Positions 24,868 to 63,716 of a stretch of DNA of 64,000 nt are shown piece after piece (within the stretch, counting starts at the first letter, position 1; every line of letters starts with the position of its first letter). The stretch comes from a virus. The DNA is taken from UHGV virus genome UHGV-0277313; one strand, written 5' to 3'. A model generated the notes under the pieces. The model was given only the letters and a program-made list of their open reading frames with translations, searched no databases and was not told the origin of the DNA. The position numbers were made by a program, and so were the translations under genes.

Positions 24868-24916
24868 TCGTACGAATAGTTTTTCTAAATCACTTTTTAT
24901 AAAAATACTCGTACGA
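24868..24916. promoter_or_regulatory. pair of TCGTACGA palindromic motifs in divergent intergenic region
   Basis: aagTCGTACGAatag at 24868 and ctcGTACGAttcgacgttcttaaattatag at 24909, between fiber (-) and gly-rich (+) genes. Confidence 0.45.
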
Positions 24917-24957
24917 TTCGACGTTCTTAAATTATAGTTAATGATGCAGGTGTTGTA

Positions 24958-25614
24958 ATGACTATTTATAAAGGTTCACAAAAAGTAAAGCAGATTGCCA
25001 GTAAAAATAAATCTGTTAAAAGGATTTATTGTGGAACGAAATTAATATTTGGAACAAAAGCCAGTAAATTATTGGTTTATACAACATCTGGTTCAATAAC
25101 GATACCTAATAATACAATATCATGTATAGTTCATGTTGTTGGAAGTGGTGGAAGTTCTGGTGGTACTAATCCATATGCTCATGAACTTCATTGTGCATCT
25201 GGTGGTGGGTCAGCAGGATATTCACGAAAACAATATAATTCTAGCCTATCTGGACAAACTATCAATTTTACAGTAGGTCAACCTATATCGTCATATTGCC
25301 AAAATGGTCAAAATTCATCTTTTCTTGCTCAAATCGGTGGAATGGGTTTTGCAGGAATAGCTGCAACAGGCGGTGCATCTCAACCTGGTGGAGTCGGCGG
25401 TGCAGCTTCAGGAGGTGATGTTAATACAAATGGTTCACAAGGAGAGCAAGGTTGCTGGCTAGCTTGGGGCGGCGGCAGTGGTGGTCAAGGTAGAGGTGCA
25501 ACAGGTCATACAATAAATGGTGTTCAATATGGGTTTGGTGGAACATGTACTGGCGTAGGTTCCCCAACATCTGGTAGTGGTTGTGTCATCGTTGAGTTAA
25601 TTTATTGGGCATGA
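24958..25614 (+). CDS. glycine-rich structural protein (VVGGGG-motif family)
   Basis: 218 aa; N-term IYKGSQKV...IYCGTKLIFG, then HVVGSGGSSGG and Gly-rich body; divergent from fiber gene. Confidence 0.6.
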   Translation: MTIYKGSQKVKQIASKNKSVKRIYCGTKLIFGTKASKLLVYTTSGSITIPNNTISCIVHVVGSGGSSGGTNPYAHELHCASGGGSAGYSRKQYNSSLSGQTINFTVGQPISSYCQNGQNSSFLAQIGGMGFAGIAATGGASQPGGVGGAASGGDVNTNGSQGEQGCWLAWGGGSGGQGRGATGHTINGVQYGFGGTCTGVGSPTSGSGCVIVELIYWA

Positions 25615-25693
25615 TTCTTTACTTTTTTAGTTGATTATTTTTAATGATTATGTTAATGTAAATCCATTGTTTGAGAATTAGAAGGAGAGAACA

Positions 25694-25993
25694 GTGGACT
25701 TTACTTTGGCTGCTATGGCAAGTGTTCCATATTCTGCTAACAAGTTGTTTTTATTAGCAACTTGTTTGGTATCGTGTATTTATTCAACGGTTTATTTAAT
25801 ACACTCCAAAGATAAACTAGTTACAGAAAGTAACTATAAATTTCTTTTATGTATTTTAATAGTAGCAATCGTCGATGCAACTTTTATTTTCTTGTGCTGG
25901 GATAGGTTGACTTTTGATGAAATATGTGGAATGTTTATATGTGCACCTATTGTTTATTTGATCACATCTGTGTTAAAAAAGGTTAATAAATGA
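25694..25993 (+). CDS. membrane protein (3 predicted TM segments)
   Basis: 99 aa hydrophobic ORF with SD aaggagag. Confidence 0.5.
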   Translation: MDFTLAAMASVPYSANKLFLLATCLVSCIYSTVYLIHSKDKLVTESNYKFLLCILIVAIVDATFIFLCWDRLTFDEICGMFICAPIVYLITSVLKKVNK

Positions 25994-26346
25994 AACATTT
26001 TTATTGGTATGGTGGTTATATTAAAAATAAAAAGCAATATCAACGTGTTGAATTCATAATTGCACAAGAAGATAAAAAACTGTATCAGTTCGTTGATTAC
26101 AAACTTTTTAAAGAGATTAAAACTGAAACAAAAGATATTTGGAAAAACGCATCTAAATTAATTCAGGAAGCAGGACATTGGAGTGATGAAGCGGATGCGG
26201 CTTTAGCCTTTAATGGTTATTTGTGGTCTGAAATAACAGAACAAGAATTTAAAGAAATCTATCAGACAGGGACTGTTGAGGAAAAAGACTTGCGAATGAT
26301 TTATTTGCAGTGGCTAAAGGATACAGGAATTAACAGAATCAGATGA
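25990..26346 (+). CDS. hypothetical protein
   Basis: 118 aa ORF overlapping previous stop (ATGA). Confidence 0.5.
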   Translation: MKHFYWYGGYIKNKKQYQRVEFIIAQEDKKLYQFVDYKLFKEIKTETKDIWKNASKLIQEAGHWSDEADAALAFNGYLWSEITEQEFKEIYQTGTVEEKDLRMIYLQWLKDTGINRIR

Positions 26347-26399
26347 TAAAAGTTTATAAGACCAAATTGAATTTAACATATAATTAGCGTAAGCAATTT

Positions 26400-27482
26400 A
26401 TGGCTAATGCTGGTTGTGCTCGTTGGGCTTATAACTATGTTGTCGGTAAAGAAACTGAATCTTTAAAGAGCAATAAATATATTCCTGTTAATGATTTAAG
26501 AAAAGAAGTTACAAAATTAAAACAAACAGATGAATTAAATTGGTTATTTAATTATGATTGTGATATTGTTAAGCAATCAATGAAAGATGCTGATAAAGCA
26601 TTCAGAACATTTTTTAAGAATAAACAGAAATTTGGATTTCCTAAATTTCATTCTAAACATTCATCTAAACAATCTTTTTATGTTGATGGTGTTAAATTAA
26701 AAGTTTGGTCGAATAAAATCAGAGTACCAAAAGTAGGTTATGTTAAGTTATATGAAAAAGATTATATTCCAACGGATGTTAAAAGTTATACCAATCCAAG
26801 AATTTTATTTGATGGAATAAGTTGGTATATTTCTGTTGGTGTAAAAGAAGATGATCCTAAAAAGATTACAAATAATGTTGTTATTGGCATTGATTTAGGA
26901 TTAAAGGAATTAGCAACATGTTCCAATGGACTTGTTATCCATAATATATCCAAATCAAAAAGATATAAAAAGTTAGAAAAGAAATTAAAAAGACAACAAA
27001 GGCAAATGTCAAGATCCTTAGAAAGGAATAAGATTGGAAAGAAATTTGTCAAGACAAAGAACTTTGAGAAATATAGAAAGAGATATTTAAAGACAAGTAT
27101 TAAGATGAATAATCTGAAGATAGATTATTTCAATAAATCTATTGTAGATATCATGAAAACCAAGTGTTGTACAATAGTTCTCGAAGATTTAGCTGTAAAG
27201 AATATGCAGAAAAATAGAAAAATATCTAATGCTTTTCAGAAATCTGCTATTTCTCAGTTTAGATCAAGATTGATTCAGAAAGCTGAAATGCTTGGTGTCA
27301 GTATATCTATCGCAGATAGATTCTTTCCAAGTTCAAAGATGTGTTCTCATTGTGGACATATTAAAAAAGATCTGACATTGTCAGATAGAATATATCATTG
27401 TGATATATGTGGGTTTGAGGTTGATCGTGATTTAAATGCTGCGATCAATCTCAAGAATACCGTGAGATCCACGGGAATTTAA
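26400..27482 (+). mobile_element. tnpB: TnpB (IS200/IS605 OrfB family RNA-guided RuvC nuclease)
   Basis: FGFPKFHSKH block; RuvC-I IGIDLGLKELATCSNG; C-terminal zinc finger CSHCGH...CDICGF followed by DRDLNAAINL (RuvC-III). N-terminus may be disrupted (KVYKTKLNLTYN* in another frame just upstream). Confidence 0.75.
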
Positions 27483-27580
27483 GCCTTCTATTGATTTGTT
27501 AAGATTATACTTGACAAATTCATGTAGGAATTATAAGATTAAATACTTAGTTATAACTTATAAAGATCGGAAAAAGAATA

Positions 27581-28540
27581 ATGAGTAATGTTGATCTAAT
27601 TGAATGGTGGTTGCATCAATTTAAATTTACCGAACAAGATATGAACTTGTTGCAATCGTATGAAACTGATTTTATTATTACAAATAAAGATTACGATATT
27701 GTAAGAGAAAAAGCTTTGTCGATGTTGCCTGTACATTCAATTGATTATCATATTCATTTTGATACTTGTGCAACAAACATAATTGATAATTTATTTTTCA
27801 AGTATGTCGATGATGACACATTAGTCATTACAACAATGAGCGAACATCCTTCTGTAAAAAAGAATTTAGAGAAGTGCAAGAATGTAATATACATGTGTTG
27901 TAACGGAAAAGTGATTGAAGATTTTTATAAGCAATCGGACAAAATAGCTAATTTTAAAAAGGTATTTGTTTATAATATAGCTTTATCTGTTGGTGATGGG
28001 CATATAACATATAATGACAATTTATTGGAGCTGAAAAGGAATCTAGATTCATTAGGTATCAAATCAGTTTTTGTATTAGATGCTGTACAAGAATTGTTTA
28101 TGTTGCCGCGTGATTATTCAATCTATGATTATATTATTGGTACTGCACATGCATTCGTCACGAAATACGATACTGGAGTACTTTTAAGTAAAGAGTATAT
28201 ACCGTCAGCTAAATCGTGTTTATCACAAGGTGATCAGTATTTAGATTTATTGTCAATGTTGATAAAACATAAAGAACAATTATATCAATTTAAATATGTA
28301 ATGGTGCAAGTATTTGGAAAATATTTATCGACAGATAGCGCTTTAAGTGTAACAGAAAACGGGCCGTATGTATTCAACTTGATTGATAAAAAGAATCGAT
28401 TGGTTGGAATTACTGAAGCAGATCCAATTGCACAACCTGAAAATACTAATGCAACATTAAGAGCTTGCGAATCTTTATTGGACCAAAATACGTTTATAAA
28501 TAAAGTGGAAACGATTAAATATCTGTTGTCGGAGAACTAA
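27581..28540 (+). CDS. cysteine desulfurase-like (aminotransferase class V fold) protein, paralog 1
   Basis: VITTMSEHPSVKKNLEKCKNV and VLDAVQELFMLPRDYSIYDYIIGTAHAF resemble IscS/NifS ITSxxEHxAV and VDAVQS...SGHK, but Lys of SGHK is Ala. Confidence 0.5.
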   Translation: MSNVDLIEWWLHQFKFTEQDMNLLQSYETDFIITNKDYDIVREKALSMLPVHSIDYHIHFDTCATNIIDNLFFKYVDDDTLVITTMSEHPSVKKNLEKCKNVIYMCCNGKVIEDFYKQSDKIANFKKVFVYNIALSVGDGHITYNDNLLELKRNLDSLGIKSVFVLDAVQELFMLPRDYSIYDYIIGTAHAFVTKYDTGVLLSKEYIPSAKSCLSQGDQYLDLLSMLIKHKEQLYQFKYVMVQVFGKYLSTDSALSVTENGPYVFNLIDKKNRLVGITEADPIAQPENTNATLRACESLLDQNTFINKVETIKYLLSEN

Positions 28541-28542
28541 AC

Positions 28543-30202: not shown

Positions 30203-30262
30203 TTATTGACATTTATTCTTTAATGATATAGCATATAACTATATACAGAAGGAAGGTGTATT

Positions 30263-31359: not shown

Positions 31360-31419
31360 TGTTGACATTGTGCAAAATTTAATATAATATATTTATATAG
31401 TTTTAGGAGAAAGTGGCAT

Positions 31420-32161: not shown

Positions 32162-32905
32162 TTATCCTGTTGATTTCATGTATGTAAAATCAAGAATTAC
32201 ACAACCAACTATTCCGTTTGTATATGCTGCGCCGTAGCTAGGTTGAAAACCCCCTGCTCCATAGCCTGTAGTTGTATCATCATATGCACTAGGTGTTGGC
32301 GCAAACACACTGACTGAACCATATGGAACGGTATAGCCATTTTTATTTAAACTGTTACCTCCTGTTGCTGTACCACCATTTGCTGCATGGCCGTTGTCAT
32401 ACCAACCGCTCATTCCACCTTGACCGCCTGTTGCTTGCATGTTAATATTTGTTCCAACACAGCTAGAAGTACCACCATCAGCACCTTTATGACCACCCGC
32501 TGAAGTAGGCCCGCCAGCTGCTGCACCTGCGGCGCACGCTCCAGCTTTACCAACAATACAAGTTAAACTCTGAAGACTTAAATCTTTTGCTGCTGTGCCA
32601 GTAAAGACGCTTTTACATACAGCGCCACTGCCACCTGAACGACCACACCATTTATTACCGTGATAGAATGTGCTTTCACCGCTACCACCACCGCCGCCGA
32701 CGACCGTAATTGTTAACGACAATAATTCTTTAGGTAAAGTAAAGCTATACGTTCCAGCAACGTTAAATGTTTTGTTTTCAGTTGTTTGAACTTTAGTAAC
32801 ATAAACCAGCTGTTTACCTTTGTAGACTCTCCTAATATTTTTATTATCAGAAGATATTTTTGTTAAATTTTTATTAGACTTTTTTATTGTCATCATTCTT
32901 CTCAC
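32162..32905 (-). CDS. glycine-rich structural protein (VVGGGG-motif family)
   Basis: 247 aa; RRVYKGKQLVYVTK...LTITVVGGGGGSG then Gly/Ala-rich body. Confidence 0.6.
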   Translation of the reverse strand: MRRMMTIKKSNKNLTKISSDNKNIRRVYKGKQLVYVTKVQTTENKTFNVAGTYSFTLPKELLSLTITVVGGGGGSGESTFYHGNKWCGRSGGSGAVCKSVFTGTAAKDLSLQSLTCIVGKAGACAAGAAAGGPTSAGGHKGADGGTSSCVGTNINMQATGGQGGMSGWYDNGHAANGGTATGGNSLNKNGYTVPYGSVSVFAPTPSAYDDTTTGYGAGGFQPSYGAAYTNGIVGCVILDFTYMKSTG

Positions 32906-32961
32906 TAATTACTATTTATCGTAAGAACAAAGATTTATGTGATAAACAAATAACACTAAAC

Positions 32962-33374: not shown

Positions 33375-33560
33375 TATTAAAACCTTTAGTTAAGTTGCAA
33401 CTGAATAAAGAACAAACTTAAAGACAATCAGCTTGACTTTTGTTTTTTAATTTGATATTTTAAAAACTTCACACAAACCAATGAAAATTGAAGAAAATTT
33501 CTTGCAAAATTTCATCGTTTGAGTTAATATAGAATAAATTGAGAAAAGAAGAAACGGAAA

Positions 33561-34754
33561 ATGATTCGCAGTTCAGCATTGACGTTAAAATTTGCAACAA
33601 GCAAAAAGCTGAACACCTTGGATTTGGTGTTTGACGAGTATGTCCGTGTTGTGAATTTGTATATTGATGCCTTGAGCCAATCAAAAGAACTGCCTAAATT
33701 CATCAATTTCAAAGTGGATACTTGGATTTCTGTTCAGCTCCAGCAAGTAGCTGGCAAACAAGCAGTGGAAATAATAAAATCTACCAGAAAGAAAGATCGA
33801 GAGATTAGATTGAAGAAATACAAGAAAACCTACAAGTATTTCTTAAATAAACAACGACAAAAGAAATTCATTAGCACGAAATTCAGCGAATTGAGATTGA
33901 ATTACAAAATAAAACCAAGGTATGATGGGAAAGTAATTCCGTTTGATCAACGCCAGTTTTCTTTATGTAAGTCAAATAATTCGTTTGACTTCTGGGTTCA
34001 TTTGCGTTGCCTTGGTAATAAATTTATTTTGGATTTGCCTTTGAAAAATCACAAGCACAATAAACAGTTTATAGATTGGAAACGAGTGGGTTCTTGTAGG
34101 TTGCTTAGAAACAATGGGAAATACAAAATTGAGTTGATTTATGAAAAAGAAGCTCCTAAATTAGCTAAACCAACAAAAATACTTGCAATAGATGCAGGAA
34201 TTAATTGCTTGATGTCTTGCTCAGATGGACGACAGCTTGGTTTAGAACTGAAGAAATTACTCAATGAATTGAATCAGAAACAACAGAAATCTAAATCATA
34301 CACTCGTAAATTGAACCAAATACATAACTATGTCCGTTGGTGCGTGAACCAGCTAAATTGGGGTAATTTATCTGATTTGGTGATTGAAAATCTGAAATAC
34401 ATTCAGATTGATACGAAGAAGCGAGTTAATAAAGTAACTTGTAAGTTGCTTTCCAAATGGAATTTGGGTTTATGGCGTAAAGCCATAGAACAAAAATGTG
34501 AAGAAAACTGTGTTTATTTGCATTATGTTAATCCCAAAGACACAAGCAGAACTTGTCCTAAATGCGGAAGCATTGACAAGGAAAACAGAAACGGTGAATT
34601 ATTTCATTGCATAAATTGTGGCTATGAAGCAAATGCTGACCTCAATGCAGCAATGAATATACTCACCCGGTTTTATCAGGAGAAACCTTTGCAGGTTGAT
34701 ATAGTCCTTGATTCTGCGAAAACTAATTTTAGTGATTTCATTAATTTTCATTAA
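33561..34754 (+). mobile_element. tnpB: TnpB (IS200/IS605 OrfB family RNA-guided RuvC nuclease), second copy
   Basis: RuvC-I ILAIDAGINCLMSCSDG; zinc finger CPKCGS...CINCGYEANADLNAAMNIL; 397 aa. Confidence 0.75.
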
Positions 34755-34797
34755 AATTGGTAACTATTGTAATTCCAATAACGAATTGAGGTTTAAT

Positions 34798-40813: not shown

Positions 40814-40914
40814 CTATTCACCTATATTCTTTCTTTTAAGAACAAATAAAACTTGACAATTTCGTTTGCTTGTTTTATCTTTAGAGTGTAAATAGAAATT
40901 TGAGGTAATTTTAT

Positions 40915-44793: not shown

Positions 44794-45432
44794 ATGAAAA
44801 AGTTTAATTTAAAATTAGGTAATAACATTTGTCCTTTTTGTGGTAGTGAATTAACATATAATGACGAATATAAAATTGTTTACTGTAAGATATGTAAAGA
44901 AAAAGGTCATGCAGTACAATTTAAATATAAAGATGATCCACAAGAAGCATTTGATTATGCAAACACAAGAAACGGTGAAAATGAACTGTTGGAAAAACTT
45001 CAGGATTTGTATGCATATCTTAAACAATTAGGTATTGAAGGTCAAAATCTTGAAGATATTTCAGTTGCATCAGAAGGTGAATTGCCAAACAACGGTTGGA
45101 TTATTACTGAAGAAGCTGTTGCCTTGCCTTGCGAAGAACCTCATGATGTAATGTATTCACATTTGGTTACAGATAAATCTATCAATTTGTCTGATCGTCA
45201 AGCTGTTTGTAATTCTTTGCATTGTATTAATGTGACATACGTCATGAAAGTCCTTGACATTTATATTCCAAAAAGATATAATGCTAAACAGAAAGAAGTT
45301 TTAACGAAGGTTTGTTCAAAGTATCCAAAAGATACCAAAATTGAAGTTGAGTATTTGACAGATGCTAAAGGAAAACAGTTCGAAACTTTTGATGGAATAA
45401 GTGACTTTTTACTATTTTTGGATACGATCTAA
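44794..45432 (+). CDS. zinc-ribbon protein
   Basis: N-terminal CPFCGS...YCKICK (CxxC-x17-CxxC); ATG at 44794 with SD aaggaaa; heads the radical-SAM array. Confidence 0.5.
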   Translation: MKKFNLKLGNNICPFCGSELTYNDEYKIVYCKICKEKGHAVQFKYKDDPQEAFDYANTRNGENELLEKLQDLYAYLKQLGIEGQNLEDISVASEGELPNNGWIITEEAVALPCEEPHDVMYSHLVTDKSINLSDRQAVCNSLHCINVTYVMKVLDIYIPKRYNAKQKEVLTKVCSKYPKDTKIEVEYLTDAKGKQFETFDGISDFLLFLDTI

Positions 45433-48180: not shown

Positions 48181-49157
48181 ATAAAGAAAATGATAACAGA
48201 CAAGAATGTCAATTTGAAGTTTGGACTGAATGCAATTCTAAATGTGTGTTTTGTTATTTAAGTACAAATAACATTAAAACATTAGATGAAATTAAAATAA
48301 AACAGATGAATGAAATCATCGATAGCATGAAAGCCGATGACTTTTGTGAAAAGTTTAATAAAGTTGCATTCATTGGCGGTGAATTTTATCAAGGTCAACT
48401 ATCAAATCCTGAAGTCAAGTCTAAATTTATGGAAATGATGGATGTTGCAGCAGATTTACTAAACAGTGGTAAAATTACTGAAGTTTGGACTTGTGCAACT
48501 TTAACAATTGGTGATCAGAAGGATATGTATGAAGTCTTGAAGAAATTCAATGACATATCAAGAGTTTGGGTGTTGACATCATACGATACTATAGGAAGAT
48601 TTCATACACCTAAAATGAAACAGACGTGGCTTGATAACATGCAGAAGTTACGTGACACATACAAAGATATTAAGATTAACATTACATCAATCTTAACTGG
48701 TGATTTTATTGATAAATATCTTGAAGGAACTTTAGATTTATGGGAAATTGCTAATCAGTATAATGCAGCAATTTTCTTAAAACCAGCATGCCCTATTGAT
48801 AGAAACGAAAAGTCACAATACACTAAAGAAGAAACCAATCAAATTATACCAAACTTTTTCCCAACACGTGACAAATTTATTGAGTTTCTATATAAATTTA
48901 AAATGAATGAGCCTGAATTCATGTATGATAAATTATTCAACATGAAATATAGAAGCGATTATTTATATCGTTTTGAAGAAGGTGAAATGCATTGTTCGCA
49001 TCGAGTAAAAGAAACACAGCAAGAGTTTTATGATAAACAAATAGCTGATAATGTTGTTAATAAATGCGGACATAGTTCACAATATCAAATATATCTTGAT
49101 AGTGATGAATGTGCTGTTTGTGATAAAGAAATGATTAAGGAAATGGTGAATGATTGA
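48177..49157 (+). CDS. radical SAM enzyme, paralog 4
   Basis: WTECNSKCVFC, FIGGEFYQ; tail NKCGHSSQYQIYLDSDECAVCD. Confidence 0.7.
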   Translation: MNKENDNRQECQFEVWTECNSKCVFCYLSTNNIKTLDEIKIKQMNEIIDSMKADDFCEKFNKVAFIGGEFYQGQLSNPEVKSKFMEMMDVAADLLNSGKITEVWTCATLTIGDQKDMYEVLKKFNDISRVWVLTSYDTIGRFHTPKMKQTWLDNMQKLRDTYKDIKINITSILTGDFIDKYLEGTLDLWEIANQYNAAIFLKPACPIDRNEKSQYTKEETNQIIPNFFPTRDKFIEFLYKFKMNEPEFMYDKLFNMKYRSDYLYRFEEGEMHCSHRVKETQQEFYDKQIADNVVNKCGHSSQYQIYLDSDECAVCDKEMIKEMVND

Positions 49158-50088
49158 GTCTATTCTAGAAAAAGTATCTTTTAACAATGCCGAATTTGCA
49201 TTTTATAAAGAGTCACTTAAAAGTTACAATGCAAAAGAAATCATGTCTGAACATGATTATGAATCAGTTGATAAAGCATTGAAAGAATTTCTTCCTTGCA
49301 AAATTAATGACGATTATCATTTTACATTTTCAACAACCGCAACTGATTTAATTAAACAGTTATTTAAAAAGTATGTTGATGATGACACATTGGTTTTGAC
49401 AACAAATAGTGAACATCCTAAAGTTCAGGAAATTTTAAAGAAATGCAAAAACGTAGTTAAAGCTTTTGATAAAGAAAGTTTACAACAGTTTACAGTTGAT
49501 AATAAATATAAACGCGTTTTTATTTATATGATTGGGACAATGTGTGCAACAGGCCACATTGTTTATGATCAGGAGTTTGAATCAATCATTGAACGTGCAA
49601 AAGCTTCAGGTAAAGAAGTCATTACAGTCATTGATGCAGTTCAAGAACTATTCCTATTACACCGTGATTATAACAAATTCGATTATATTATTGGTACAGC
49701 ACATGCCTTAATTCCTGAATATAATGTTGGTTTAATGTTGTCAAAAGACACATCAGTTGGAAAACATTTGATGATTGCGCAACCTTTTGTAACGATGTTA
49801 AAATGGCTTTTAAAGCGCAAAGAATACCTATATCAATTCAGTACTTTTATGAGTATGGAATTTGGCAATACCCGTAATACACAATTCTATCATGATTTTG
49901 GTATCAGTCATCTATTCTTTATTAAAACCAGAAATGGTGAATTTAATCAGATGCAAGAAGAAGATACTGTAAAAGATAATATCGACAATGTTGGTGTATT
50001 ATTTAGAGGTTGTTGGTCTGTTGTAGATCGTGAAACTTTTGATAATCTTTTACAAACAACAAAATTCATTGTTGAAGGGAATATCTAA
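49150..50088 (+). CDS. cysteine desulfurase-like (aminotransferase class V fold) protein, paralog 2
   Basis: LVLTTNSEHPKVQEILKKCKNV; VIDAVQELFLLHRDYNKFDYIIGTAHAL. Confidence 0.5.
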   Translation: MIESILEKVSFNNAEFAFYKESLKSYNAKEIMSEHDYESVDKALKEFLPCKINDDYHFTFSTTATDLIKQLFKKYVDDDTLVLTTNSEHPKVQEILKKCKNVVKAFDKESLQQFTVDNKYKRVFIYMIGTMCATGHIVYDQEFESIIERAKASGKEVITVIDAVQELFLLHRDYNKFDYIIGTAHALIPEYNVGLMLSKDTSVGKHLMIAQPFVTMLKWLLKRKEYLYQFSTFMSMEFGNTRNTQFYHDFGISHLFFIKTRNGEFNQMQEEDTVKDNIDNVGVLFRGCWSVVDRETFDNLLQTTKFIVEGNI

Positions 50089-51047
50089 TGAAATTAATTA
50101 CTAATTGGTTGAATAGTTTTGATTATTCAAAAAATGAATTAGAACAATTGGCAAGAATACGGATATCCGATGATATCATTATAGATAACTTTGATGAAGA
50201 AAAAGTTCGAACTTTTTCAATGATACCGTTTGATAGCTTTAAATATAATCATCTGACTGTTGATACATGTGCAACAAATATCATTAATAATTTATTTGAT
50301 AAATATGTTGATGACGATACTTTGGTTATTACAACAGGAAGTGAACATCATTCTGTTAGAAACAATCTAAACAAATGCCAAAATGTTGTTAATTTTGTTT
50401 GTCGTGGGGAAATCCGTCAAGATATAGATATAATTAACACAATAAAACCTTTTAAAAAAGTATTCATTTATATGATTGCTTTAAGTGTCGGCGACCCACA
50501 TTATCTTAACAATTGTATTGTGGAGCAATTACAAAACATTCTAAAAGAAAACAATAAACAATTCGTTACTGTATTAGATGCTGTACAAGAATTGTTTTTA
50601 TTACCACGAGATTATTCAATCTATGATTATGTTGTAGGCACTTCACATGCGTTAATACCGAATTATGATATGGGAATGTTATTCGGTAAAGAAGAGCTTT
50701 CATATAAAGCGGGAAATTGGTTGAAAGATTTTAACGATTGTCTGGAAATTCTTTTAAGAAACCGCGACAAATTATATCAATTGAACGTTGTAATGCGTCA
50801 ACACTTTGCCAAATATACATGTTTCGATAAAGATTTAATTGATTCAAGTCGTGCACCGTATGTTTATAATTTGTGTGATTATAAAAAACGTTTAGACGGT
50901 TTAAACGATGTCGATTACGAACGAGGAGCAGTAGCTCCTGGTGATTACACACCTGTTACTTTTAGGGCATGCCCGTTTTTAGCACATCAAGAAAAGTTCC
51001 TTGATAGAATACAAACGATTGATAATATCCTTGAATCAGATATGTGA
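50088..51047 (+). CDS. cysteine desulfurase-like (aminotransferase class V fold) protein, paralog 3
   Basis: DTCATNIINNLFDKYVDDDTLVITTGSEHHSV; VLDAVQELFLLPRDYSIYDYVVGTSHAL; very close to 27581-28540. Confidence 0.5.
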   Translation: MKLITNWLNSFDYSKNELEQLARIRISDDIIIDNFDEEKVRTFSMIPFDSFKYNHLTVDTCATNIINNLFDKYVDDDTLVITTGSEHHSVRNNLNKCQNVVNFVCRGEIRQDIDIINTIKPFKKVFIYMIALSVGDPHYLNNCIVEQLQNILKENNKQFVTVLDAVQELFLLPRDYSIYDYVVGTSHALIPNYDMGMLFGKEELSYKAGNWLKDFNDCLEILLRNRDKLYQLNVVMRQHFAKYTCFDKDLIDSSRAPYVYNLCDYKKRLDGLNDVDYERGAVAPGDYTPVTFRACPFLAHQEKFLDRIQTIDNILESDM

Positions 51048-51051
51048 AGAT

Positions 51052-51851: not shown

Positions 51852-52469
51852 TTATATTGCAATTATTTTTACATAGCCACCTATAGCAGGAAACGAAGCA
51901 TTATTTTGTCCTGCATTGTTATTCCCTGAAGCGCCAGGACCTGTTATTGTTCCATCATATGTTGAAACTGTACGTGTTGAACCAGGCGTATTCCAAGAAT
52001 CATAAATAGCAAACCATTTACCATTTACAGGTGTTGCATTACTTATTATTTGAAAATTTGTCCATAGATTAGTATCGAAACCGCCTGTTGAATACCCAAT
52101 AGCTTTTGTACCATCACCAACTTTTCCAGAGTTAAAGGCAGCGCCTACTTGGGATAAATCACCTTGTGGGGAAATAAAAATATTGGACGAATAATCCGGC
52201 AACGTTCCAACACCAGAAGCCACACCGGTATTTGTCGGTGCAGCAATATTTCCATAACTAAAATTTGAGTTATCACCACCATTACCAACAACTATATACA
52301 GTTTTTGCCCTGCATGTTTAGGTTTTATTCGTATAATTCCACAACCTGAACCACTTGCCGTTGATCTTGACCAATAGAGCTTATAACGTTTATCTGTATG
52401 TTTGTTTAACTTGTTTGTACGATTATGTCTTTTTGGTTTATTATCAATAAAGTTACTGATATTTATCAT
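51852..52469 (-). CDS. glycine-rich structural protein (VVGNGG motif)
   Basis: 205 aa; YIVVGNGGDNS then Gly/Ser/Thr-rich body. Confidence 0.5.
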   Translation of the reverse strand: MINISNFIDNKPKRHNRTNKLNKHTDKRYKLYWSRSTASGSGCGIIRIKPKHAGQKLYIVVGNGGDNSNFSYGNIAAPTNTGVASGVGTLPDYSSNIFISPQGDLSQVGAAFNSGKVGDGTKAIGYSTGGFDTNLWTNFQIISNATPVNGKWFAIYDSWNTPGSTRTVSTYDGTITGPGASGNNNAGQNNASFPAIGGYVKIIAI

Positions 52470-52483: not shown

Positions 52484-52741
52484 TTATAAGTCAACAACTG
52501 CACCAACTACAGGTGAACCCCCACCGACAACAACTATCTCAACCATTTGTGATGTCGGTAACATTATTTCATAGGTACTAAAACCACCACCACCATTATT
52601 ACCAAACTTTTCAAACAAAACAGTTCCAGAAGGTAAAGCTTTTTGATATATCAAAGTTTGACCTTGATAAATTTCTTTGATTACTCTGTCACCAAAAGTA
52701 ACTAAAGGAACTTTATTTCCTTGATAAATTATCATATGCAA
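52484..52741 (-). CDS. short glycine-rich family N-terminal module (possible split gene with 51852-52469)
   Basis: 85 aa; IIYQGNKV...IYQGQTLIYQ...EIVVVGGGSPVVG then stop; separated by 14 nt from downstream gly-rich ORF. Confidence 0.4.
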   Translation of the reverse strand: MHMIIYQGNKVPLVTFGDRVIKEIYQGQTLIYQKALPSGTVLFEKFGNNGGGGFSTYEIMLPTSQMVEIVVVGGGSPVVGAVVDL

Positions 52742-52801
52742 CTCTTTCTAGTAATATAAACACAATTGTATCTCTATACAACTAAAAAGAAGAACAAAAC
52801 G

Positions 52802-52932
52802 TCGTACGACTTAATTATGAAAATTTAAAAATAGAATGTAACAACAAATGGTGCATCAGAATGTCCATCAATAAAAATAACATGATTCATTTTAAATTAA
52901 GTCGTACGACTTGAAGGTCTATTGATCAAATG
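52802..52932. promoter_or_regulatory. pair of TCGTACGA motifs in divergent intergenic region
   Basis: cgTCGTACGActtaa at 52802 and agTCGTACGActtgaaggtctattg at 52902. Confidence 0.45.
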
Positions 52933-52957: not shown

Positions 52958-53596
52958 ATGTCAATCAATAATCAAGGTCGAAAAATAAAAGTAATTTATA
53001 AAGGTTCAACAAAGTTTGGACGTGTTTATAAAGGTGAACAGATAATTTTTGGAACAAAGTTTCATGATGTAAAAACTTTTACAGCGTCCGGAAGTTTTAT
53101 CTTTCCAAACAGACTGATTTCATTGACTATTACAGTTGTTGGTGGCGGTGGTGCATCTGGTGGTTGGTCAAATGATAGGCACGGTTGGTACACACCAAAA
53201 CCTGGTCAAAACGGCGGAAAAGCTATACATTCACTGTCTAATGCAATTGATTATTCAAATAAAACTGTAACGTTTATTGTTGGTGATGGTGGAAAAGCTG
53301 GTGCTCAAGCCTGGTCTGGAAAATTTAACGGGTTTTATGCTTCTACCAAAGGCGGCGACAGTTCAGTTCCATTGTTTAATTTGGTTGCGACAGGTGGTTA
53401 TCAAGGGTGGACTGCAGGAAACCCTCAATCTACTGATAACCAACCTGGTACGGCATCTGGTGGCAATACGTTCAATGGTGTTTCAACAGATGCATATCCT
53501 GCAAATGGTGGTGGCGCCCCAATTTCTTCATCGGTTGGTGCTGGCATTAATGGTGTTGTCGGTAAAGTAGTTTTTGATTATTACTATTGGAAATAA
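52958..53596 (+). CDS. glycine-rich structural protein (VVGGGG-motif family)
   Basis: 212 aa; KVIYKGSTKFGRVYKGEQIIFG...LTITVVGGGGASGG. Confidence 0.6.
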   Translation: MSINNQGRKIKVIYKGSTKFGRVYKGEQIIFGTKFHDVKTFTASGSFIFPNRLISLTITVVGGGGASGGWSNDRHGWYTPKPGQNGGKAIHSLSNAIDYSNKTVTFIVGDGGKAGAQAWSGKFNGFYASTKGGDSSVPLFNLVATGGYQGWTAGNPQSTDNQPGTASGGNTFNGVSTDAYPANGGGAPISSSVGAGINGVVGKVVFDYYYWK

Positions 53597-56057: not shown

Positions 56058-56197
56058 CTTAACTTCCTTTTTTGTTTAACCAATGTAGACACTTTAGAAT
56101 AACATTTTCAAAATGTCAAGCTTTATTTGCAAACATATCTAAAAAACATTCATCACGTTCTTTTTATAAAGATTTTTATATTTAAACAGGTGTGAAT

Positions 56198-57301
56198 ATG
56201 AGCATTCGTGTTAACGGTAAAGTGATTGCAAGTAATGGAGATGTTAAAACAGAAACTGATAACCTGGTAACCACTGATACTAATCAGACTATTACCGCAA
56301 CTAAAGTATTCACTGCTGAACAGCAGAAGAAATCAACAGTTATCGATATTACAACACAGCCAGAAAATTACACTTCAAATAACGCTTTTCGTTTTCTAGA
56401 TAAAAACGATCAAATTTCTGGTTATATTGAAAATGGTCAGATGGCTTCTGGCGAAATTACAACAGGGATCCATGCAAAAAATAAAGATGGCTATCAACCT
56501 CATGTAAGTATTTTTGCACCTTTATCAGGTACAACCGGAGCTTATGCAATCGCACCTAGGACACCTGAAGACGCTCCTGATAATGCTATTACTACCATTG
56601 ATTATGTGAAGAATAACTATGTAGATAAGACGAGTAATCAGACGATTTCTGGTGTTAAAACATTCACGGCAAGTAGACCTGTTGAAATTATAGCTGATAC
56701 CAATCAGCAAATAGTTCCTACTACCGACACATCTTGTGTGCTTGGATTATACCGTAATGCTACATATACAAAGGGAGATGGATTTTCGAGTTGGATACAA
56801 GGAGTTCGTGCTTCTAACGGGTTATCAACGAGCGGGATGTATGTAAGACGATTTCTTGAAAGTGATAGTCAGCCAATTGTAAACTATATTTCTGTACAAA
56901 TAACAGCAGATGGAAGCCCTTTTGCCGTTACAAAAACACCCCCTGCTTATTGCGTTAATGAAGAAATAGTAACTGCTGCGTGGTTTAAGCAGTCAAACTG
57001 TAGCGTAAGAACAGTCATAGAAACATATCACAATGGCACTGAATGGTATCGCGTCTGGAGTGATGGCTGGAAAGAACAAGGTGGTGTTGTTTTAACTGGA
57101 AATTCGGCAACCCCCGTAACCGTGACACTTTTAACACCCTTTTCTGACGCAAATTATACTCTTCAAGCTACTTGCAACCCTCTAACAGTACAATGGGCAC
57201 AAATGGTAGATTTGCAGATTGTAAATAAAACTGCAACATCTTTTGGGATAATCGCTAACCCGTCAAACAACAATAACAACTGGTTCGCCTGTGGTTATTA
57301 A
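56198..57301 (+). CDS. tail fiber protein
   Basis: repeated fiber signature NQTITATKVFTAEQ / NQTISGVKTFTASRP; ATG at 56198 with SD aacaggtgtga (GTG at 56192 alternative). Confidence 0.65.
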   Translation: MSIRVNGKVIASNGDVKTETDNLVTTDTNQTITATKVFTAEQQKKSTVIDITTQPENYTSNNAFRFLDKNDQISGYIENGQMASGEITTGIHAKNKDGYQPHVSIFAPLSGTTGAYAIAPRTPEDAPDNAITTIDYVKNNYVDKTSNQTISGVKTFTASRPVEIIADTNQQIVPTTDTSCVLGLYRNATYTKGDGFSSWIQGVRASNGLSTSGMYVRRFLESDSQPIVNYISVQITADGSPFAVTKTPPAYCVNEEIVTAAWFKQSNCSVRTVIETYHNGTEWYRVWSDGWKEQGGVVLTGNSATPVTVTLLTPFSDANYTLQATCNPLTVQWAQMVDLQIVNKTATSFGIIANPSNNNNNWFACGY

Positions 57302-58920: not shown

Positions 58921-58959
58921 AGGCCAGTAGTTAAATTAATTGCTGGTCTTTATTTTTTT
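58921..58959. terminator. bidirectional terminator
   Basis: aggccagtag...ctggtctt hairpin + ttattttttt. Confidence 0.5.
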
Positions 58960-59599
58960 ATATTGTTCTAATCTCGACCCAACCAGACTGTCCTGTTGCA
59001 CCAACGATTGTTGTGGATTGGTTTGTCCCACTCCCACCAGCACCTGGCCCTGTTAATGTTCCATCAACAAGTGAATAACCCCCGTGACCTCCAGCAACCC
59101 AACCGTCACCATTGTTACCTACCGAATTTCTGATTATTCGATAAAACGATCCTTGAACTGTAGCTGCAGCTCCCCCAGCACCATGCCCAATACCACCATT
59201 TCGTTGGCTATCACCACCGCCTCCTCCTGAAATTGACACAAGACCAGATATAGATGAGCCACCACCATTTTGTGCCCATACGTTTCTATTTCCACCAGCA
59301 CTTCCAGCTCCAATGACAATTGACAATACAGTGTTTTTAATTAATTTTATATCACCAATAAATAAACCACTACTACCACCAGATGCAGTTGCTCCACCTC
59401 CACCACCACCAACAACAGTGATACGATAGTTTTGTGATGTTGGGATTGTAAATGAATAGGTTCCTGAATTACGTATAGAAAATAAAACGGTATTTACAGG
59501 AAGAATTTGAAACATTAATGAAGAAGCATGATAAACTTTTCCAATATTTCGACTACCTTTAATGGTGCAAATCAATTTATTTCCTTTATATATTGGCAT
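58958..59599 (-). CDS. glycine-rich structural protein (VVGGGG-motif family)
   Basis: 213 aa; MPIYKGNKL...KVYHASSLMF...RITVVGGGGGGATASGG. Confidence 0.6.
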   Translation of the reverse strand: MPIYKGNKLICTIKGSRNIGKVYHASSLMFQILPVNTVLFSIRNSGTYSFTIPTSQNYRITVVGGGGGGATASGGSSGLFIGDIKLIKNTVLSIVIGAGSAGGNRNVWAQNGGGSSISGLVSISGGGGGDSQRNGGIGHGAGGAAATVQGSFYRIIRNSVGNNGDGWVAGGHGGYSLVDGTLTGPGAGGSGTNQSTTIVGATGQSGWVEIRTI

Positions 59600-59658
59600 A
59601 GTTTAGATGTTCCTTCAAATGATGAATTATAATTAACATATAGTTCAAGAACGTTGAA

Positions 59659-59727
59659 TCGTACGATTGTTTTATAAAATTGAAATTTAAAATGTATCGT
59701 ACGAATCGAAGGTCTTTAAATAAAAGG
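59659..59727. promoter_or_regulatory. pair of TCGTACGA motifs in divergent intergenic region
   Basis: aaTCGTACGAttg at 59659 and aTCGTACGAatcgaaggtctttaaataaaagg at 59697. Confidence 0.45.
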
Positions 59728-59745
59728 ATTGTTAAATTAGGAAAA

Positions 59746-60945
59746 GCAATGTCTAACTATCAATTAACTCAATCGGTCGTTCAAGGTTTACTAAAAGACA
59801 AAAACACAATAATTGATAAATTTAATTCGAATAAAATTGTTTCAATTCAGCAAGATATTAAGTTAGAATTAAATGACGGTACTCTGATTTTAAAAGCTGG
59901 AAGTAAAGTATATATACCTAATGGTAAGAATAGTGATGATAGCAATAAATTTGATGCAGTTACTATTGAGAATGATGTAACTTATTCTGCCGTATATACA
60001 TCGGCCGTTAAATGTTATGCTGTATACGATTATTCAGCAAAAAGATTGCAAATAATTTCTTTAACTGATAATAGATTATCTTATGATTCTACAACAAATA
60101 AAGTAATTCATACAGAAATAACTGATAATGTTTTATCTTTTCCATTTGCTTTAGTAGTAAGAGATACAACTGGTATAGGTAGTGTTAACCAAATCTTCAA
60201 TGGTTTTGGATACATTGGCTCGACTTGTTATATTTTACCAGGTATTACCGGATATATTCCACAAGGATTAAATTCAGACGGAACTTTAATTAATGAAATA
60301 ATCACACAAACAAAAGTGTCTTGTACAACAGTTACTTCATCATGGGGAACTGGTTCAGAATTATTCTTCTTTAATGGCATCGATAGCTATATTCATAGAG
60401 CTTCAAAAAATTGTTTTTATCAAGCAACACAACCTATAGTGAACGATGTTGACAATTATTGGTATAACACTGAAACTGGGAAATTTTATGAAACAAAAAA
60501 TTCTGGATCATCTTGGTCTGAATTTAAAGCTATTCCTGCATTTACGATTACTTTTGATGAAGGGAAGATTACATCTTTAAAATCTTGTGGTGTACATGAA
60601 TTAGTCAATTCAAATGCAACGAATTTATCTGACTATGGAAGACAAGTTATTTCAGGTTTAGGAAAGCCTTCTAGCAAATATATTGATCTGACTGTCGGGG
60701 CTTCTGGAACGACTTATATCGCTCCAATGAATGGCTATCTTTATTGTAGTGGTCATGCCGATGCTTCACCTGCATATATATCAATTGATATTCCAAACTT
60801 ACAATATTGTGGAATAAATGGTGATGAAGGACAGGATTTAACAACAAATCAAATAGCATTAAAAATTGGTGATAAATTTACTCTACGCTATAGTAACACA
60901 ACAATTAATGCTTTTAGGTTTGTTTATGATGAAGGGTGCTCTTAA
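59746..60945 (+). CDS. tail fiber / receptor-binding-like protein, paralog 2
   Basis: N-term MSNYQLTQSV...IKLELNDGTLILKAGSKVYIPNG matches paralogs; ATG 59746 has SD taggaaaag; ORF-track start 59680 would cover the TCGTACGA motif region. Confidence 0.6.
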   Translation, partial: AMSNYQLTQSVVQGLLKDKNTIIDKFNSNKIVSIQQDIKLELNDGTLILKAGSKVYIPNGKNSDDSNKFDAVTIENDVTYSAVYTSAVKCYAVYDYSAKRLQIISLTDNRLSYDSTTNKVIHTEITDNVLSFPFALVVRDTTGIGSVNQIFNGFGYIGSTCYILPGITGYIPQGLNSDGTLINEIITQTKVSCTTVTSSWGTGSELFFFNGIDSYIHRASKNCFYQATQPIVNDVDNYWYNTETGKFYETKNSGSSWSEFKAIPAFTITFDEGKITSLKSCGVHELVNSNATNLSDYGRQVISGLGKPSSKYIDLTVGASGTTYIAPMNGYLYCSGHADASPAYISIDIPNLQYCGINGDEGQDLTTNQIALKIGDKFTLRYSNTTINAFRFVYDEGCS

Positions 60946-61047
60946 ATAGTCTGTCAGGTTGTACAACATTTGATTTAACCAGAACAGAGTTTCACCTTAG
61001 GCAATGCAAGATATGAAACCGTTAATTGTTTTCAAATTTAGAAACCT

Positions 61048-61130
61048 TATAAAATTTTATGATTTTATTTATGTTGAATCATAGAAAATTAAAAATCAAG
61101 ACTTGTTTTAAAAATAATAAGATCCAAAGT
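61048..61130. repeat. ~75 bp imperfect direct repeat, left copy
   Basis: aaattttatgattttatttatgttgaatcatag...tcaagacttgttttaaaaataat vs 63018-63092. Confidence 0.5.
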
Positions 61131-61233
61131 TAACTTTTGAAAAAGAGAATGTTTGTTTTTGAACCATCTCAATTTTTCTATTGATTTTCTTATTCATATC
61201 TTATAATATAATTATATGAAAGGAATAAAGAAG

Positions 61234-61629
61234 ATGCAAAGAATTCAAAAATTGAAATACACCTTGAAACATAAAATTGCTTTTCTTAAAGTTGAAAAGC
61301 AAATCACTGGTCACATTTCATTTAAGGGAATTGTTCATGATTTGGATAAAGTCTTTATGTTCCTTTTTTGTCCTTGGTTGACAACGAAAGAAATTCAAAA
61401 GATTCATCGTCAAAATCAAAAACATCACATTGAAAATGTTTCACAAAAAACAGAAAAGGATTATCTGGAAGCAATCATTGATTGGGAATGTGCAAGATAT
61501 ACAAAGCCGGATAAACCTTTAAATGCTTATGAAACACTTATGAAGTTTTATCCGAATTACAAAGAAGTTTATTTACCTCTTATTTTGCAATATCTTCCGC
61601 AGGAAGTTATCGATTACAAATCAAAATAA
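61234..61629 (+). CDS. hypothetical protein (cargo of repeat-flanked segment)
   Basis: ATG at 61234 with SD ggaataaagaag; ORF track start 61216. Confidence 0.45.
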   Translation: MQRIQKLKYTLKHKIAFLKVEKQITGHISFKGIVHDLDKVFMFLFCPWLTTKEIQKIHRQNQKHHIENVSQKTEKDYLEAIIDWECARYTKPDKPLNAYETLMKFYPNYKEVYLPLILQYLPQEVIDYKSK

Positions 61630-61692
61630 ATTGTAGTGTTTGAGAAAAAGATCAGTTTGAAATTTGCTTCTCACTGATCTCTTTAAAATAGC

Positions 61693-63006
61693 TCAACATT
61701 CTAAACTATTATAAATTTTATATAAATTTACAAAAGATTTAGATGACTTGAGTCTAAAAACTTCAGATTTAAACAAACCCAAAGAACGTCTGTATTTCAC
61801 TCCAGATGTTTTTGCTATATCAAAGAGTTCTTTCCAAGAACTATAAACCCAGCTTGCTGATTCCTTCCATAGGTTGAACAAACTTTCAGCTTTTATAAGT
61901 TCTGGATAAAACCGACCTTTGATATAACGGAAATTCGCACGACGTGCAATTTCCAAACTTGCTGCTATCGGGTCTGGTGCTTCGTTAAGCACATTCCCAA
62001 TGAATGAAGAATAAACTGGATTGACTTCTATGAAGTCTATTTTGTTAAGCAAGCATAGTTTCTTTAAAGCAGAAACCAAGCTATCTCTTTTCCATTTATT
62101 CTTCGTTAATCTATTGAATGATTTACCTTTTCCTGAATTACCAATTTTGAAATTCAAATCTTCAATGCCAAATTTACCAACATGGAAAAATTTGCATTTT
62201 TTGATTATATCTTTCGCAATCTCTTTAAGCTCAAAGATTTGCTTGTTGTTTTGGTGCTTAGAGTCTTTATGAGAAGAAGATTTATGAAAATTTTTGGTAA
62301 AATAGGAAAGGTCATACTGCTCTTTAAGTAATATCTTCCTCTTATCACCAGTCCATTTAGAAATAGAAAATCCAATATAATTTGGATTCATATCAATTGC
62401 GCCAATAACATTTAATTTTCCATTATAATTGGAACAATAGATTTTGAAATCATCGAAAGCAATACAGATTTTATCTAATTTTAATTCAACACTAAAATTA
62501 GATAACTTCTGCTTGACTTGCTCTTCTAAGCTGATTAGTTCATATAAGTAATTCTTATGAAAGATAGGTAACTTCAAATAGATATGTTTAGTTTTAGAAA
62601 ACTTAAAGATAATCTGGTTATTTGAGATATCCAACTTGAATTTACGATTTCCACCTTTTGGCGTTTCACCTTGAGAATAAATCCCTAAAAATCTATTTTC
62701 TTTGAAAATATTTTTATTTAACTTATGTTTTAATCTCTGAAAGAAATTAAATTTACCTCCAAATATAACATTTTCTTTATTTGCTGCAAGCAAATAACTT
62801 GCTTTCTTAATAGCACACTGAATAAACCACGAATCCGAAGGAACATTTGATAAGCTTTTAGAAAGCAATCTAATGTCTTTTTCAGATTTTTCATCTTGAA
62901 AACGGTTATATGCAAATCTTACCATATTAGACGACTTACGAATTTCATCTCTGATGAAGATTCGATCATCGTCTGAACAAGTATAAGGTAAGCTAATTGT
63001 TTTCAA
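61693..63006 (-). mobile_element. divergent TnpB/RuvC-like nuclease lacking the C-terminal zinc finger
   Basis: RuvC-I-like GAIDMNPNYIGFSI, RuvC-II-like KFGIEDLNFK, RuvC-III-like region FIGNVLNEAPDPIAASLEIARRANF; no CxxC pairs; 437 aa. Confidence 0.45.
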
Positions 63007-63017
63007 TTTATAAACCT

Positions 63018-63092
63018 TAGGAAATTTTATAGTTTAATTTATGTTAAATTAGATTTAGTTAGATGTCAAGACTTATTTTAAAAATAATCTCT
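63018..63092. repeat. ~75 bp imperfect direct repeat, right copy
   Basis: aaattttatagtttaatttatgttaaattag...tcaagacttattttaaaaataat. Confidence 0.5.
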
Positions 63093-63234
63093 TTGATTTT
63101 AACTAAGTCTTCTTGAATTGACATTTTAAGATTTCCAACTTCATATTAAAAAGATGGATAGAATTAAGTATAAAAACAAAGGAGAGGCTTAGGATTTTTA
63201 TTTCCTAAGCCTCTTCCTTCATTTTGAAGATTTT

Positions 63235-63390
63235 TTAATAATCTTCGTACCAATCACCTTGGCCATTTACCCGACGATGATAATCTTCGTTGCTTTCGTG
63301 GGATTTCCGTGTTGTGCCTTGTTCCCGTTCCAGCCGTTTGAATCTTTCGTAAGAGCTTTCTTCTTTATCTTCATCATAGGTGTAACTCAT
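63235..63390 (-). CDS. small acidic protein (MSYTYDEDKEESSYERFKRLEREQG...)
   Basis: 51 aa minus-strand ORF with strong SD aaggagaaaag and a downstream hairpin terminator at 63183-63225; the plus-strand ORF 63259-63498 is likely spurious. Confidence 0.4.
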   Translation of the reverse strand: MSYTYDEDKEESSYERFKRLEREQGTTRKSHESNEDYHRRVNGQGDWYEDY

Positions 63391-63716
63391 TTTCTTTTCT
63401 CCTTTTCCTTTCTCCAGGGGAAATCAATTTCCCTTTACATATATAACATAACCTTTTTTGGAGAAGAAATCAAGAACTTTTTTATATTTTTATTATAATT
63501 TTTCTTGATTTCTCTGCAAATCTTCAATTAAACACAGAGAGCTAAATGAAAGCTAACGTTTTAAGTTGAATCGAAATAGTCATTTCGAATTTCATAACAA
63601 ATGAAGATTAAATTAAAAACTTATGCTCTTAAATAATCTGCTAAATCGTACGACAGATTTAATAATAAATATTTAATTTAATGTTCTTTTATTAGTTAAA
63701 ATAAAGGAGCATTAAA

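Follow-up and report, generated by a model that had tools for sequence, protein, structure and literature searches.

A palindrome-containing candidate regulatory element marks the fibre-like and glycine-rich gene cassettes of an uncultured jumbo phage

Introduction

Several phages use activator sites that replace or supplement the -35 box of a promoter, among them the T4 MotA box at -30, the dyads of Mu C and Mor, and the dyads of P2 Ogr and P4 Delta at about -55. The MotA box reads (a/t)(a/t)(a/t)TGCTTtA and the Ogr site TGT-N12-ACA, while the T4-type late promoter (gp55) has an 8-bp TATAAATA at -10 as its sole element. Here we describe a stretch of 64,000 nucleotides of the virus genome UHGV-0277313 (the window), in which the 8-base palindrome TCGTACGA recurs in the control regions of fibre-like and glycine-rich genes. 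The palindrome appears to belong to a real, selected and lineage-specific cis-regulatory element that marks receptor-binding cassettes. This is no new kind of mechanism; the element belongs with the class-specific promoter and operator motifs of phages.

Three other systems invite comparison. In T4-type phages, "mobile regulatory cassettes" called promoter early stem-loops (PeSLs) combine a sigma-70 early promoter with a terminator stem-loop and serve early ORFans (Arbiol 2010, PMC2839356; Comeau 2014, PMC4122927). Inverted repeats are linked to alternative tail-fibre genes in Mu (Gin/gix), in P1 (Cin/cix) and in the shufflons, where they lie inside the fibre coding region beside an invertase gene and bound at least ~1 kb. 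The methylation-dependent promoters of Alphaproteobacteria are governed by GcrA and CcrM (Haakonsen 2015, PMC4647560; Fioravanti 2013, PMC3667746), and GcrA is a cofactor of sigma-70 region 2 that prefers methylated GANTC (PMC4647560).

The element described here resembles the sites of phage middle and late activators in that it is a short, phage-specific sequence ahead of a core promoter that is weak or non-canonical, recurs at all genes of one temporal or functional class, and can stand nearer to or further from the core promoter. It also has dyad symmetry in common with the Mu C and Ogr sites. However, its sequence is unrelated to any of these sites, the MotA box and the Ogr site included, and the window (Pfam, ~90 proteins) yielded no homologue of MotA, AsiA, Mor, C or Ogr. 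Together with the lack of a sharp -10, this sets it apart from the T4 MotA-dependent middle promoters. Its apparent regulon comprises fibre and glycine-rich cassettes only, not the late genes as a whole. PeSLs are similar in placing conserved regulatory motifs at the borders of variable genes and in the coincidence of homology breakpoints with the motif. The element, however, has neither sigma-70 boxes nor a stem-loop and serves structural or host-range genes; of the PeSL traits compared, breakpoint coincidence was the only one found.

Copies and Anatomy of the Element

The window has a G+C content of ~30% and uses the standard genetic code. It contained seven exact copies of TCGTACGA, starting at 24868, 24909, 52802, 52902, 59659, 59697, and 63646; an earlier reading of this DNA (the original prediction) had listed the same seven coordinates, and all were confirmed exactly. 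Its estimate of about one copy by chance was conservative: the mean in dinucleotide-preserving shuffles was 0.26 (maximum 3), and seven or more copies were reached in 0 of 100, which makes the enrichment stronger than had been claimed. One-mismatch variants were at chance level in the window (10 non-exact copies against ~10.6 expected), and one such match, TCGTAAGA at 32919, was dismissed as a coincidence of GTTCTTACGA. All seven exact copies lay outside the called open reading frames (ORFs), and the non-ORF share of the window is 16.6% (0.166^7 ~ 3.5e-6). An equal frequency in coding sequence, which had been named as the observation that would speak against a regulatory role, was thus not seen in the window (0/7 copies coding). 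A literature search for TCGTACGA returned just primers and unrelated uses.

Read toward the adjacent gene, six of the copies extended to a directional 20-bp sequence, TCGTACGA-cT..A.GTTCTt, three on each strand (the compact form; Table 1). The pattern TCGTACGAnTnnAnGkTCT fitted these six at 0–2 mismatches once the strand was considered. The ~25 bp consensus proposed earlier was therefore correct for 52902 and 59697 and holds more broadly, for six copies, when strand is taken into account, but the copy at 63646 shares only the core. An alignment of 15 instances (six from the window and nine from a relative described below) gave an information-rich 20-mer with unconserved flanks. The A at -2 (11/15 instances) was mirrored by a T at +10 (13/15), which extends the symmetry to a dyad of 12 bp, AnTCGTACGAnT (A-n-TCGTACGA-n-T), with TCGTACGA at its centre.

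Every copy was oriented toward its adjacent gene. The core ended mostly 41–49 nt upstream of the ATG and otherwise 59–67 nt upstream, and ribosome-binding sequences stood 7–14 nt before each ATG. In the split form, which precedes tandem fibre genes, the core is followed by 27 nt and then by ATGTTCTTT, so that the spacer between core and GTTCTT is 27 nt vs. 4 nt in the compact form. The core is thereby shifted 23 bp upstream, and GTTCTT is still 29–31 nt from the ATG. In most copies, compact and split alike, GTTCTT lay ~29–32 nt from the ATG, with an overall range of ~29–39 nt. Anatomy, orientation and distances, like the gene specificity and conservation reported below, were observed directly in the compared sequences.

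Two elements commonly stood back to back. The core centres were 36–41 bp apart in six of seven divergent regions, and the exception was the 52802/52902 pair, with a spacing of 100 bp. In the fibre/glycine-rich pairs a second palindrome, TTTTATAAAA, was situated 3–4 bp upstream of the core on the glycine-rich side, and this arrangement was found at both such pairs of the window (Table 1) and again in the relative.

Genes Served by the Element

The targets in the window were three fibre-like genes and four glycine-rich genes (Pfam Gly_rich_2), and no other kinds of genes. The gene context given in the original prediction, namely divergent fibre/glycine-rich regions or positions ahead of a fibre gene, was borne out except at the 52802/52902 pair, which separates two glycine-rich genes. 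The three fibre-like genes are paralogues with a conserved N-terminus and an FNGFGYIGST box in common, and Pfam and PHROG searches gave no match for them. Three of the glycine-rich genes at the motif are single ORFs, and the fourth is a two-ORF version. The glycine-rich proteins also matched PHROG 863 ("tail fiber assembly"), and one of them (58958-59599) weakly matched a PDB entry, the glycine-rich domain of SCD-2, which is an ALK homologue.

The two-ORF version comprises an 83-aa N-terminal ORF at 52484-52735(-) followed by a 205-aa ORF at 51852-52469(-). The same split was present in the relative (L039:2362-2613) and is therefore conserved. This points to either a pair of genes or a programmed frameshift, and away from a pseudogene of recent origin.

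Amino-acid identity among the paralogues was 24–35% for the fibres and 26–35% for the glycine-rich proteins; the 8-mer was nonetheless invariant. Because neutral DNA as old as paralogues of 24–35% identity would be scrambled, the invariant 8-mer is under selection. Terminator-like hairpins at 51050, 54595, 58919, and 23380 delimit the cassettes, pointing to independent transcription units.

Conservation and Range

The window was identical to the ENA contig ERZ27290582:k141_24374 (310,151 bp) over an overlap of 14,252 bp, and it is for this reason assigned to an uncultured jumbo phage. In this source contig a further back-to-back pair was found 2 kb beyond the window end (window-equivalent 65777/65816), where it separates a Gly-like ORF from a 247-aa fibre-like ORF, as had been predicted for sequence outside the window. 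On the left-hand side of the window, 9.7 kb of sequence contained no copy.

A scan of IMG/VR with a 19-nt pattern identified one genome with multiple matches, IMGVR_UViG_3300013426_000013 (313,762 bp; ERZ808258 NODE_5). This relative had about 75% nucleotide identity to the window, with ~72–90% across the aligned segments, and it had the element at orthologous and additional cassettes. Scanning its whole contig gave eight strict compact and two split matches, all upstream of fibre or glycine-rich genes; the two split copies preceded tandem fibres (L052:1374 and L052:2817). Contigs L132, L135, and L259-L262 were strains of the relative (97–99.7%). Between L132 and L133 the flanks were 99% identical and the sequence in the middle of a fibre gene was non-homologous (L132:925-1319 vs. 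L133:6171-6577), which appears to represent a recent mosaic replacement within the fibre ORF.

In 1.38 Mb around distant fibre homologues, drawn from viral, metagenome and metagenome-assembled genome (MAG) collections, TCGTACGA occurred at chance level, with two copies that were both coding. The search for analogous palindromes at these loci gave nothing convincing, the copies of TCTGCAGA in L112 being coding as well. Megablast and tblastn against the INPHARED phages found no match to the window. On these comparisons the element appears to be lineage-specific.

Promoter Classes

GTTCTT also occurred without the palindrome. It was found 20–45 nt upstream of 11 genes, against 0.96 expected under random placement and 2.2 under non-coding placement. 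These genes included a gp53-like fibre gene with a chaperone operon (56198), a fifth Gly_rich_2 gene and several minus-strand genes (Table 1). The site at the fifth Gly_rich_2 gene has a full element at its orthologue in the relative (L004:3765, minus strand). The phage also encodes an ankyrin-repeat protein (6141-7043(-), 300 aa; Ank_2, E = 3e-38), whose gene lies downstream of one that is preceded by a GTTCTT-type element. The string "TGTCAAG" upstream of some GTTCTT sites was discarded as a further element, as it is the -35 TTGACA of a divergent sigma-70-like promoter on the opposite strand.

A second kind of upstream sequence, TTGACA-N16-18-TAnnnT, was present 28–41 nt upstream of the ATG at at least 10 other genes and at a GcrA-like gene beyond the window. 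None of its 24 matches in the window fell in the cassette control regions, where generic promoter scans gave weak, chance-level matches only. The element itself does not have the geometry of a sigma-70 promoter, since its core-to-GTTCT offset is 14 or 37 nt and not about 23. With regard to the T4-type late promoter, TTTAAATA- or TTAAATTA-like strings followed GTTCT in about a third of copies, at no fixed position. Near-consensus TTGACA-N17-TAnnnT sites were observed at 2100-2171, 7524-7552, 9064-9092, 27511-27539, 30206-30234, 31362-31390, 40853-40881, and 56091-56119; such sites precede many small genes, often as back-to-back pairs. They probably represent an early-type promoter class separate from the GTTCTT class. 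The phage thus appears to have two promoter classes, with the palindrome as an add-on to the GTTCTT class, and the GTTCTT half, being common to other genes, is the more likely core promoter element.

Candidate Regulator

The only regulator candidate in this low-GC gut or rumen jumbo phage was a GcrA-family gene (Pfam E = 3e-32) located 3.3 kb beyond the window and adjoining a cassette (L211:17215-17715; window-equivalent ~66963-67463). It stands behind a sigma-70-type promoter, and it has a syntenic orthologue in the relative with 72% identity. The likeness to GcrA systems lies in the position of this gene near a cassette and in the fibre homologues, which are often binned with low-GC gut Alphaproteobacteria MAGs; this frequent binning hints at the host clade. 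However, GcrA recognises YGAKTCK or methylated GANTC, unlike TCGTACGA, which is itself not GANTC. The link to the motif is weak because GANTC occurred in only 7 of the 15 aligned compact copies, overlapping the 3′ end of the core. The sole methyltransferase in the window was of the Dam-like D12 class, with no CcrM-type enzyme seen there. We know of no case in which GcrA binds dyads.

Interpretation of the Element

We consider it reasonably probable (about 0.6) that the element is a dyad operator or activator site, AnTCGTACGAnT, joined to a phage-specific GTTCTT promoter, and that this combination defines a receptor-binding-gene regulon. The TCGTACGA-centred dyad would most likely bind a dimeric transcription factor, encoded by the phage or by the host. 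Fused to the core promoter element GTTCT(T), it would provide one oriented 20-bp module per gene, and in the divergent pairs two back-to-back modules would allow both promoters to be controlled from one short region. GTTCTT alone would drive a wider set of non-early genes, and the palindrome would set apart, as a regulon under control of its own, the fibre-like genes and the glycine-rich ones (adhesin- or chaperone-like). GTTCTT is placed within about 20 nt of the putative transcription start because the ribosome-binding sequences 7–14 nt before the ATG imply a leader. The core would then fall at about -30 in the compact and about -50 in the split form, which favours an activator site; such positions are typical of the activators T4 MotA, Mu C and P2 Ogr. 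For Mu C the comparison is documented (PMC4461284). What we infer from this arrangement is that a protein binds the dyad, where transcription starts, and in which direction and when control would act.

The original prediction of an operator or late-promoter element coordinating the receptor-binding modules therefore survives in part: a transcriptional cis-element dedicated to these modules is supported, but this element is composite and directional, and the palindrome supplies just its upstream half. The case for a cis-element is built on the exclusively intergenic position, the oriented copy at each gene, the near-constant distance to the ATG, the conservation among paralogues and in the relative, and the pair predicted and found outside the window. 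Several observations weigh against a dyad joined to a GTTCTT promoter. Pfam searches of ~90 window proteins revealed no helix-turn-helix (HTH) protein, sigma factor, RNA polymerase or other DNA-binding protein, and PHROG scans of the same proteins revealed no sigma factor, polymerase, recombinase or HTH either, so that the dimeric HTH regulator anticipated earlier was not found among them. The aligned copies had no sharply positioned -10 hexamer after GTTCT. Only two independent lineages carry the motif, and because of this confinement the orthologous copies are not independent evidence. In addition, the sequence in which the core 8-mer could be counted came to only ~81 kb for the source genome (310 kb) and ~46 kb for the relative.

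It seems rather unlikely that the whole 20-bp element is instead a promoter read directly by a phage sigma factor or phage RNA polymerase, with no separate factor involved, on the pattern of T7-type promoters or those of non-canonical jumbo-phage polymerases. Jumbo phages often encode their own polymerases, and direct reading would account for the contiguous, directional 20-bp conservation, for the fixed distance to the ATG and for the absence of sigma-70-type boxes from the cassette control regions. However, the split form puts 27 nt instead of 4 between the core and GTTCTT, GTTCTT is present upstream of other genes without the core, and offsets of 14 and 37 nt match no fixed two-box geometry; dyad symmetry is also more in keeping with a dimer than with a polymerase or sigma factor, and no polymerase or sigma gene was seen in 81 kb of the source genome. 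A T7-like single-subunit RNA polymerase (ssRNAP) promoter has a contiguous consensus of ~23 bp that spans the start; the compact element is contiguous over 20 bp, the split form breaks this contiguity, and no ssRNAP was seen in the same 81 kb. The two spacer lengths, the GTTCTT-only promoters and the dyad symmetry thus argue that the core is the site of a transcription factor and not a built-in sigma or polymerase box. Such a site could also be a repressor operator, with paired operators about four helical turns apart that shut both divergent promoters, so that alternative receptor-binding cassettes are silenced, delayed or expressed in subsets. The paired cores at 36–41 bp in six of seven divergent regions are consistent with this, as are the overlap of the compact-form core with the inferred -35 contact position and the existence of GTTCTT-only promoters, which makes the core dispensable for promoter identity. 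We regard it as unlikely, though, as the core of the split form stands ~50 nt ahead of the presumed start, where steric repression would work poorly, the 52802/52902 pair is 100 bp apart, and no repressor candidate was found among the window proteins scanned.

Two further explanations were considered. Transcription might begin inside the core or ahead of it, for example at the AT-rich TTTTATAAAA or at TAnAAT-like boxes, and the 20-mer would then be a 5′ leader RNA signal with a role in translation, stability or antitermination. The weak A-rich preference 5–8 nt upstream of the core and the tight GTTCTT-ATG distance of 29–32 nt in most copies would agree with a leader signal, but RNAalifold predicted no conserved structure or covariation from the core to the ATG (0 pairs), the sequence upstream of the core is unconserved between orthologues on the fibre side of the first site, and dyad symmetry is a DNA-level property. 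We therefore rejected an RNA element as such and hold a leader signal to be very unlikely. Least probable of all is that the repeats are primarily recombination sites for cassette shuffling or inversion, either recombinase crossover sites or PeSL-like micro-homologies. Homology of the window with the relative does stop exactly at the two outer limits of the pair 24857/24928, the glycine-rich gene at 24958 has its nearest counterpart in another cassette of the relative, a ~31-bp direct repeat with a decayed core flanks a 2.6-kb insertion, and PeSL motifs are documented in modular shuffling (PMC2839356, PMC4122927). On the other hand, the sites lie upstream of complete genes with their own ribosome-binding sites and not within genes as in Gin, Cin, Hin and the shufflons, the 28–33 bp between inverted copies are too short for inversion, and no integrase, invertase or resolvase was found among the ~90 proteins scanned. 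The spacer orientation, with TTTTATAAAA on the glycine-rich side, was the same in both lineages, and neither the relative nor the strain contigs differed from the window in orientation. An invertible promoter or shufflon was rejected on these grounds, and recombination would in any case leave unexplained both the fixed ATG distance and the GTTCTT shared with other promoters. The conserved element may nevertheless serve incidentally as micro-homology for module exchange, as in the T4-type PeSLs.

Other Features of the Window

The positions of the element and of the genes and sites associated with it are listed in Table 1.

Table 1. Coordinates of the element, associated palindromes, GTTCTT sites and representative target genes in the window
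Feature	Position	Strand	Remarks
Fibre-like gene, 430 aa	23532..24824	-	Paralogue of 59749-60945 and 63717->; homologues in many gut/rumen phage contigs
Compact element TCGTACGACTTGATGTTCTT	24856..24875	-	43 nt from core end to ATG of fibre-like gene 23532-24824(-)
Palindrome TTTTATAAAA	24895..24904		Between two cores; 4 bp upstream of Gly-rich-side core
Compact element TCGTACGATTCGACGTTCTT	24909..24928	+	41 nt upstream of ATG of Gly_rich_2 gene 24958-25614(+)
GTTCTT with degenerate core	32923..32928	-	Upstream of fifth Gly_rich_2 gene 32162-32905(-)
Compact element TCGTACGACGTTTTGTTCTT	52790..52809	-	66 nt upstream of ATG (52735) of Gly-rich ORF 52484-52735(-)
Compact element TCGTACGACTTGAAGGTCTA	52902..52921	+	48 nt upstream of ATG of Gly_rich_2 gene 52958-53596(+)
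Coreless GTTCTT	56157..56162	+	35 nt upstream of gp53-like tail-fibre gene 56198-57301 and chaperone
Glycine-rich protein, 213 aa	58958..59599	-	Pfam Gly_rich_2 1e-9; PHROG 863 "tail fiber assembly"
Compact element TCGTACGATTCAACGTTCTT	59647..59666	-	59 nt upstream of ATG of Gly_rich_2 gene 58958-59599(-)
Palindrome TTTTATAAAA	59670..59679		3 bp upstream of Gly-rich-side core
Compact element TCGTACGAATCGAAGGTCTT	59697..59716	+	44 nt upstream of ATG (59749) of fibre-like gene 59749-60945(+)
Decayed core TTGTACAA	60959..60966		Both CpGs altered; within left member of ~31-bp direct repeat
Split element	63646..63689	+	Core TCGTACGA 63646-63653, 27-nt AT-rich spacer, ATGTTCTTT 63681-63689; precedes fibre-like gene 63717->(+), truncated by window end
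Other GTTCTT-only sites			Genes starting 7524(-), 33374(-), 40813(-), 42905(+), 54848(-)

Three TnpB-like insertions (~26312-27569, 33458-34779, and 60979-63623) were absent at the same places in the relative. Two carried Cas12f1-like_TNB / OrfB_IS605 domains, and the third encoded a 437-aa protein that the source annotation labels SSO2105_N. This third, window-specific insertion of 2.6 kb also contained a 137-aa ORF and was flanked by the ~31-bp direct repeat (60937-60967 vs. 63624-63654). An end or target motif of IS200/IS605-TnpB elements was rejected as the origin of the palindrome, as the relative is without the three insertions and keeps all motif copies.

A 13-gene tRNA array extended from 16237 to 23178, with long ORF-free gaps (e.g., 17413-18718, 19638-20625, and 21808-22726). 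The presence of this array led us to reject stop-codon recoding as the cause of the ORF-poor region at 17–23 kb. The gene of the Dam-like D12 N6-adenine methyltransferase (16458-17312) was inside the array, which is closed by a very strong terminator hairpin at 23380-23426. Near the array, a 762-aa fusion (9103-11391) of a kinase (AAA_33), a phosphoesterase and a T4 Rnl1-type RNA ligase (PHROG 8238, E = 4e-146) probably represents an RNA repair enzyme of the Pnkp/ligase type. The region 45432-51047 was a tandem array of six paralogous genes of ~290–325 aa with weak radical-SAM / 4Fe-4S signatures, and a related copy was located at 27581-28540.

Implications

A more speculative proposal, to which we give low odds, is that the paired dyads form a dedicated host-range switch, in which one regulator binding cooperatively selects among about eight or more fibre/adhesin cassettes. 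The regulator could then be the early-expressed GcrA-like sigma-70 cofactor or another dimer, and the outcome would be virions with differing receptor-binding sets (host-range bet-hedging) rather than simple late-gene timing.

The motif offers a sequence handle on the expression of many alternative receptor-binding modules in an uncultured jumbo phage. Its apparent regulon of fibre-like genes and polyglycine-type partner genes could help to locate host-range genes in related contigs. The motif also separates at least two putative promoter classes in this lineage, one sigma-70-like and one of the GTTCTT type with or without the dyad, and the dyad itself provides a concrete DNA bait with which the regulator may be identified.

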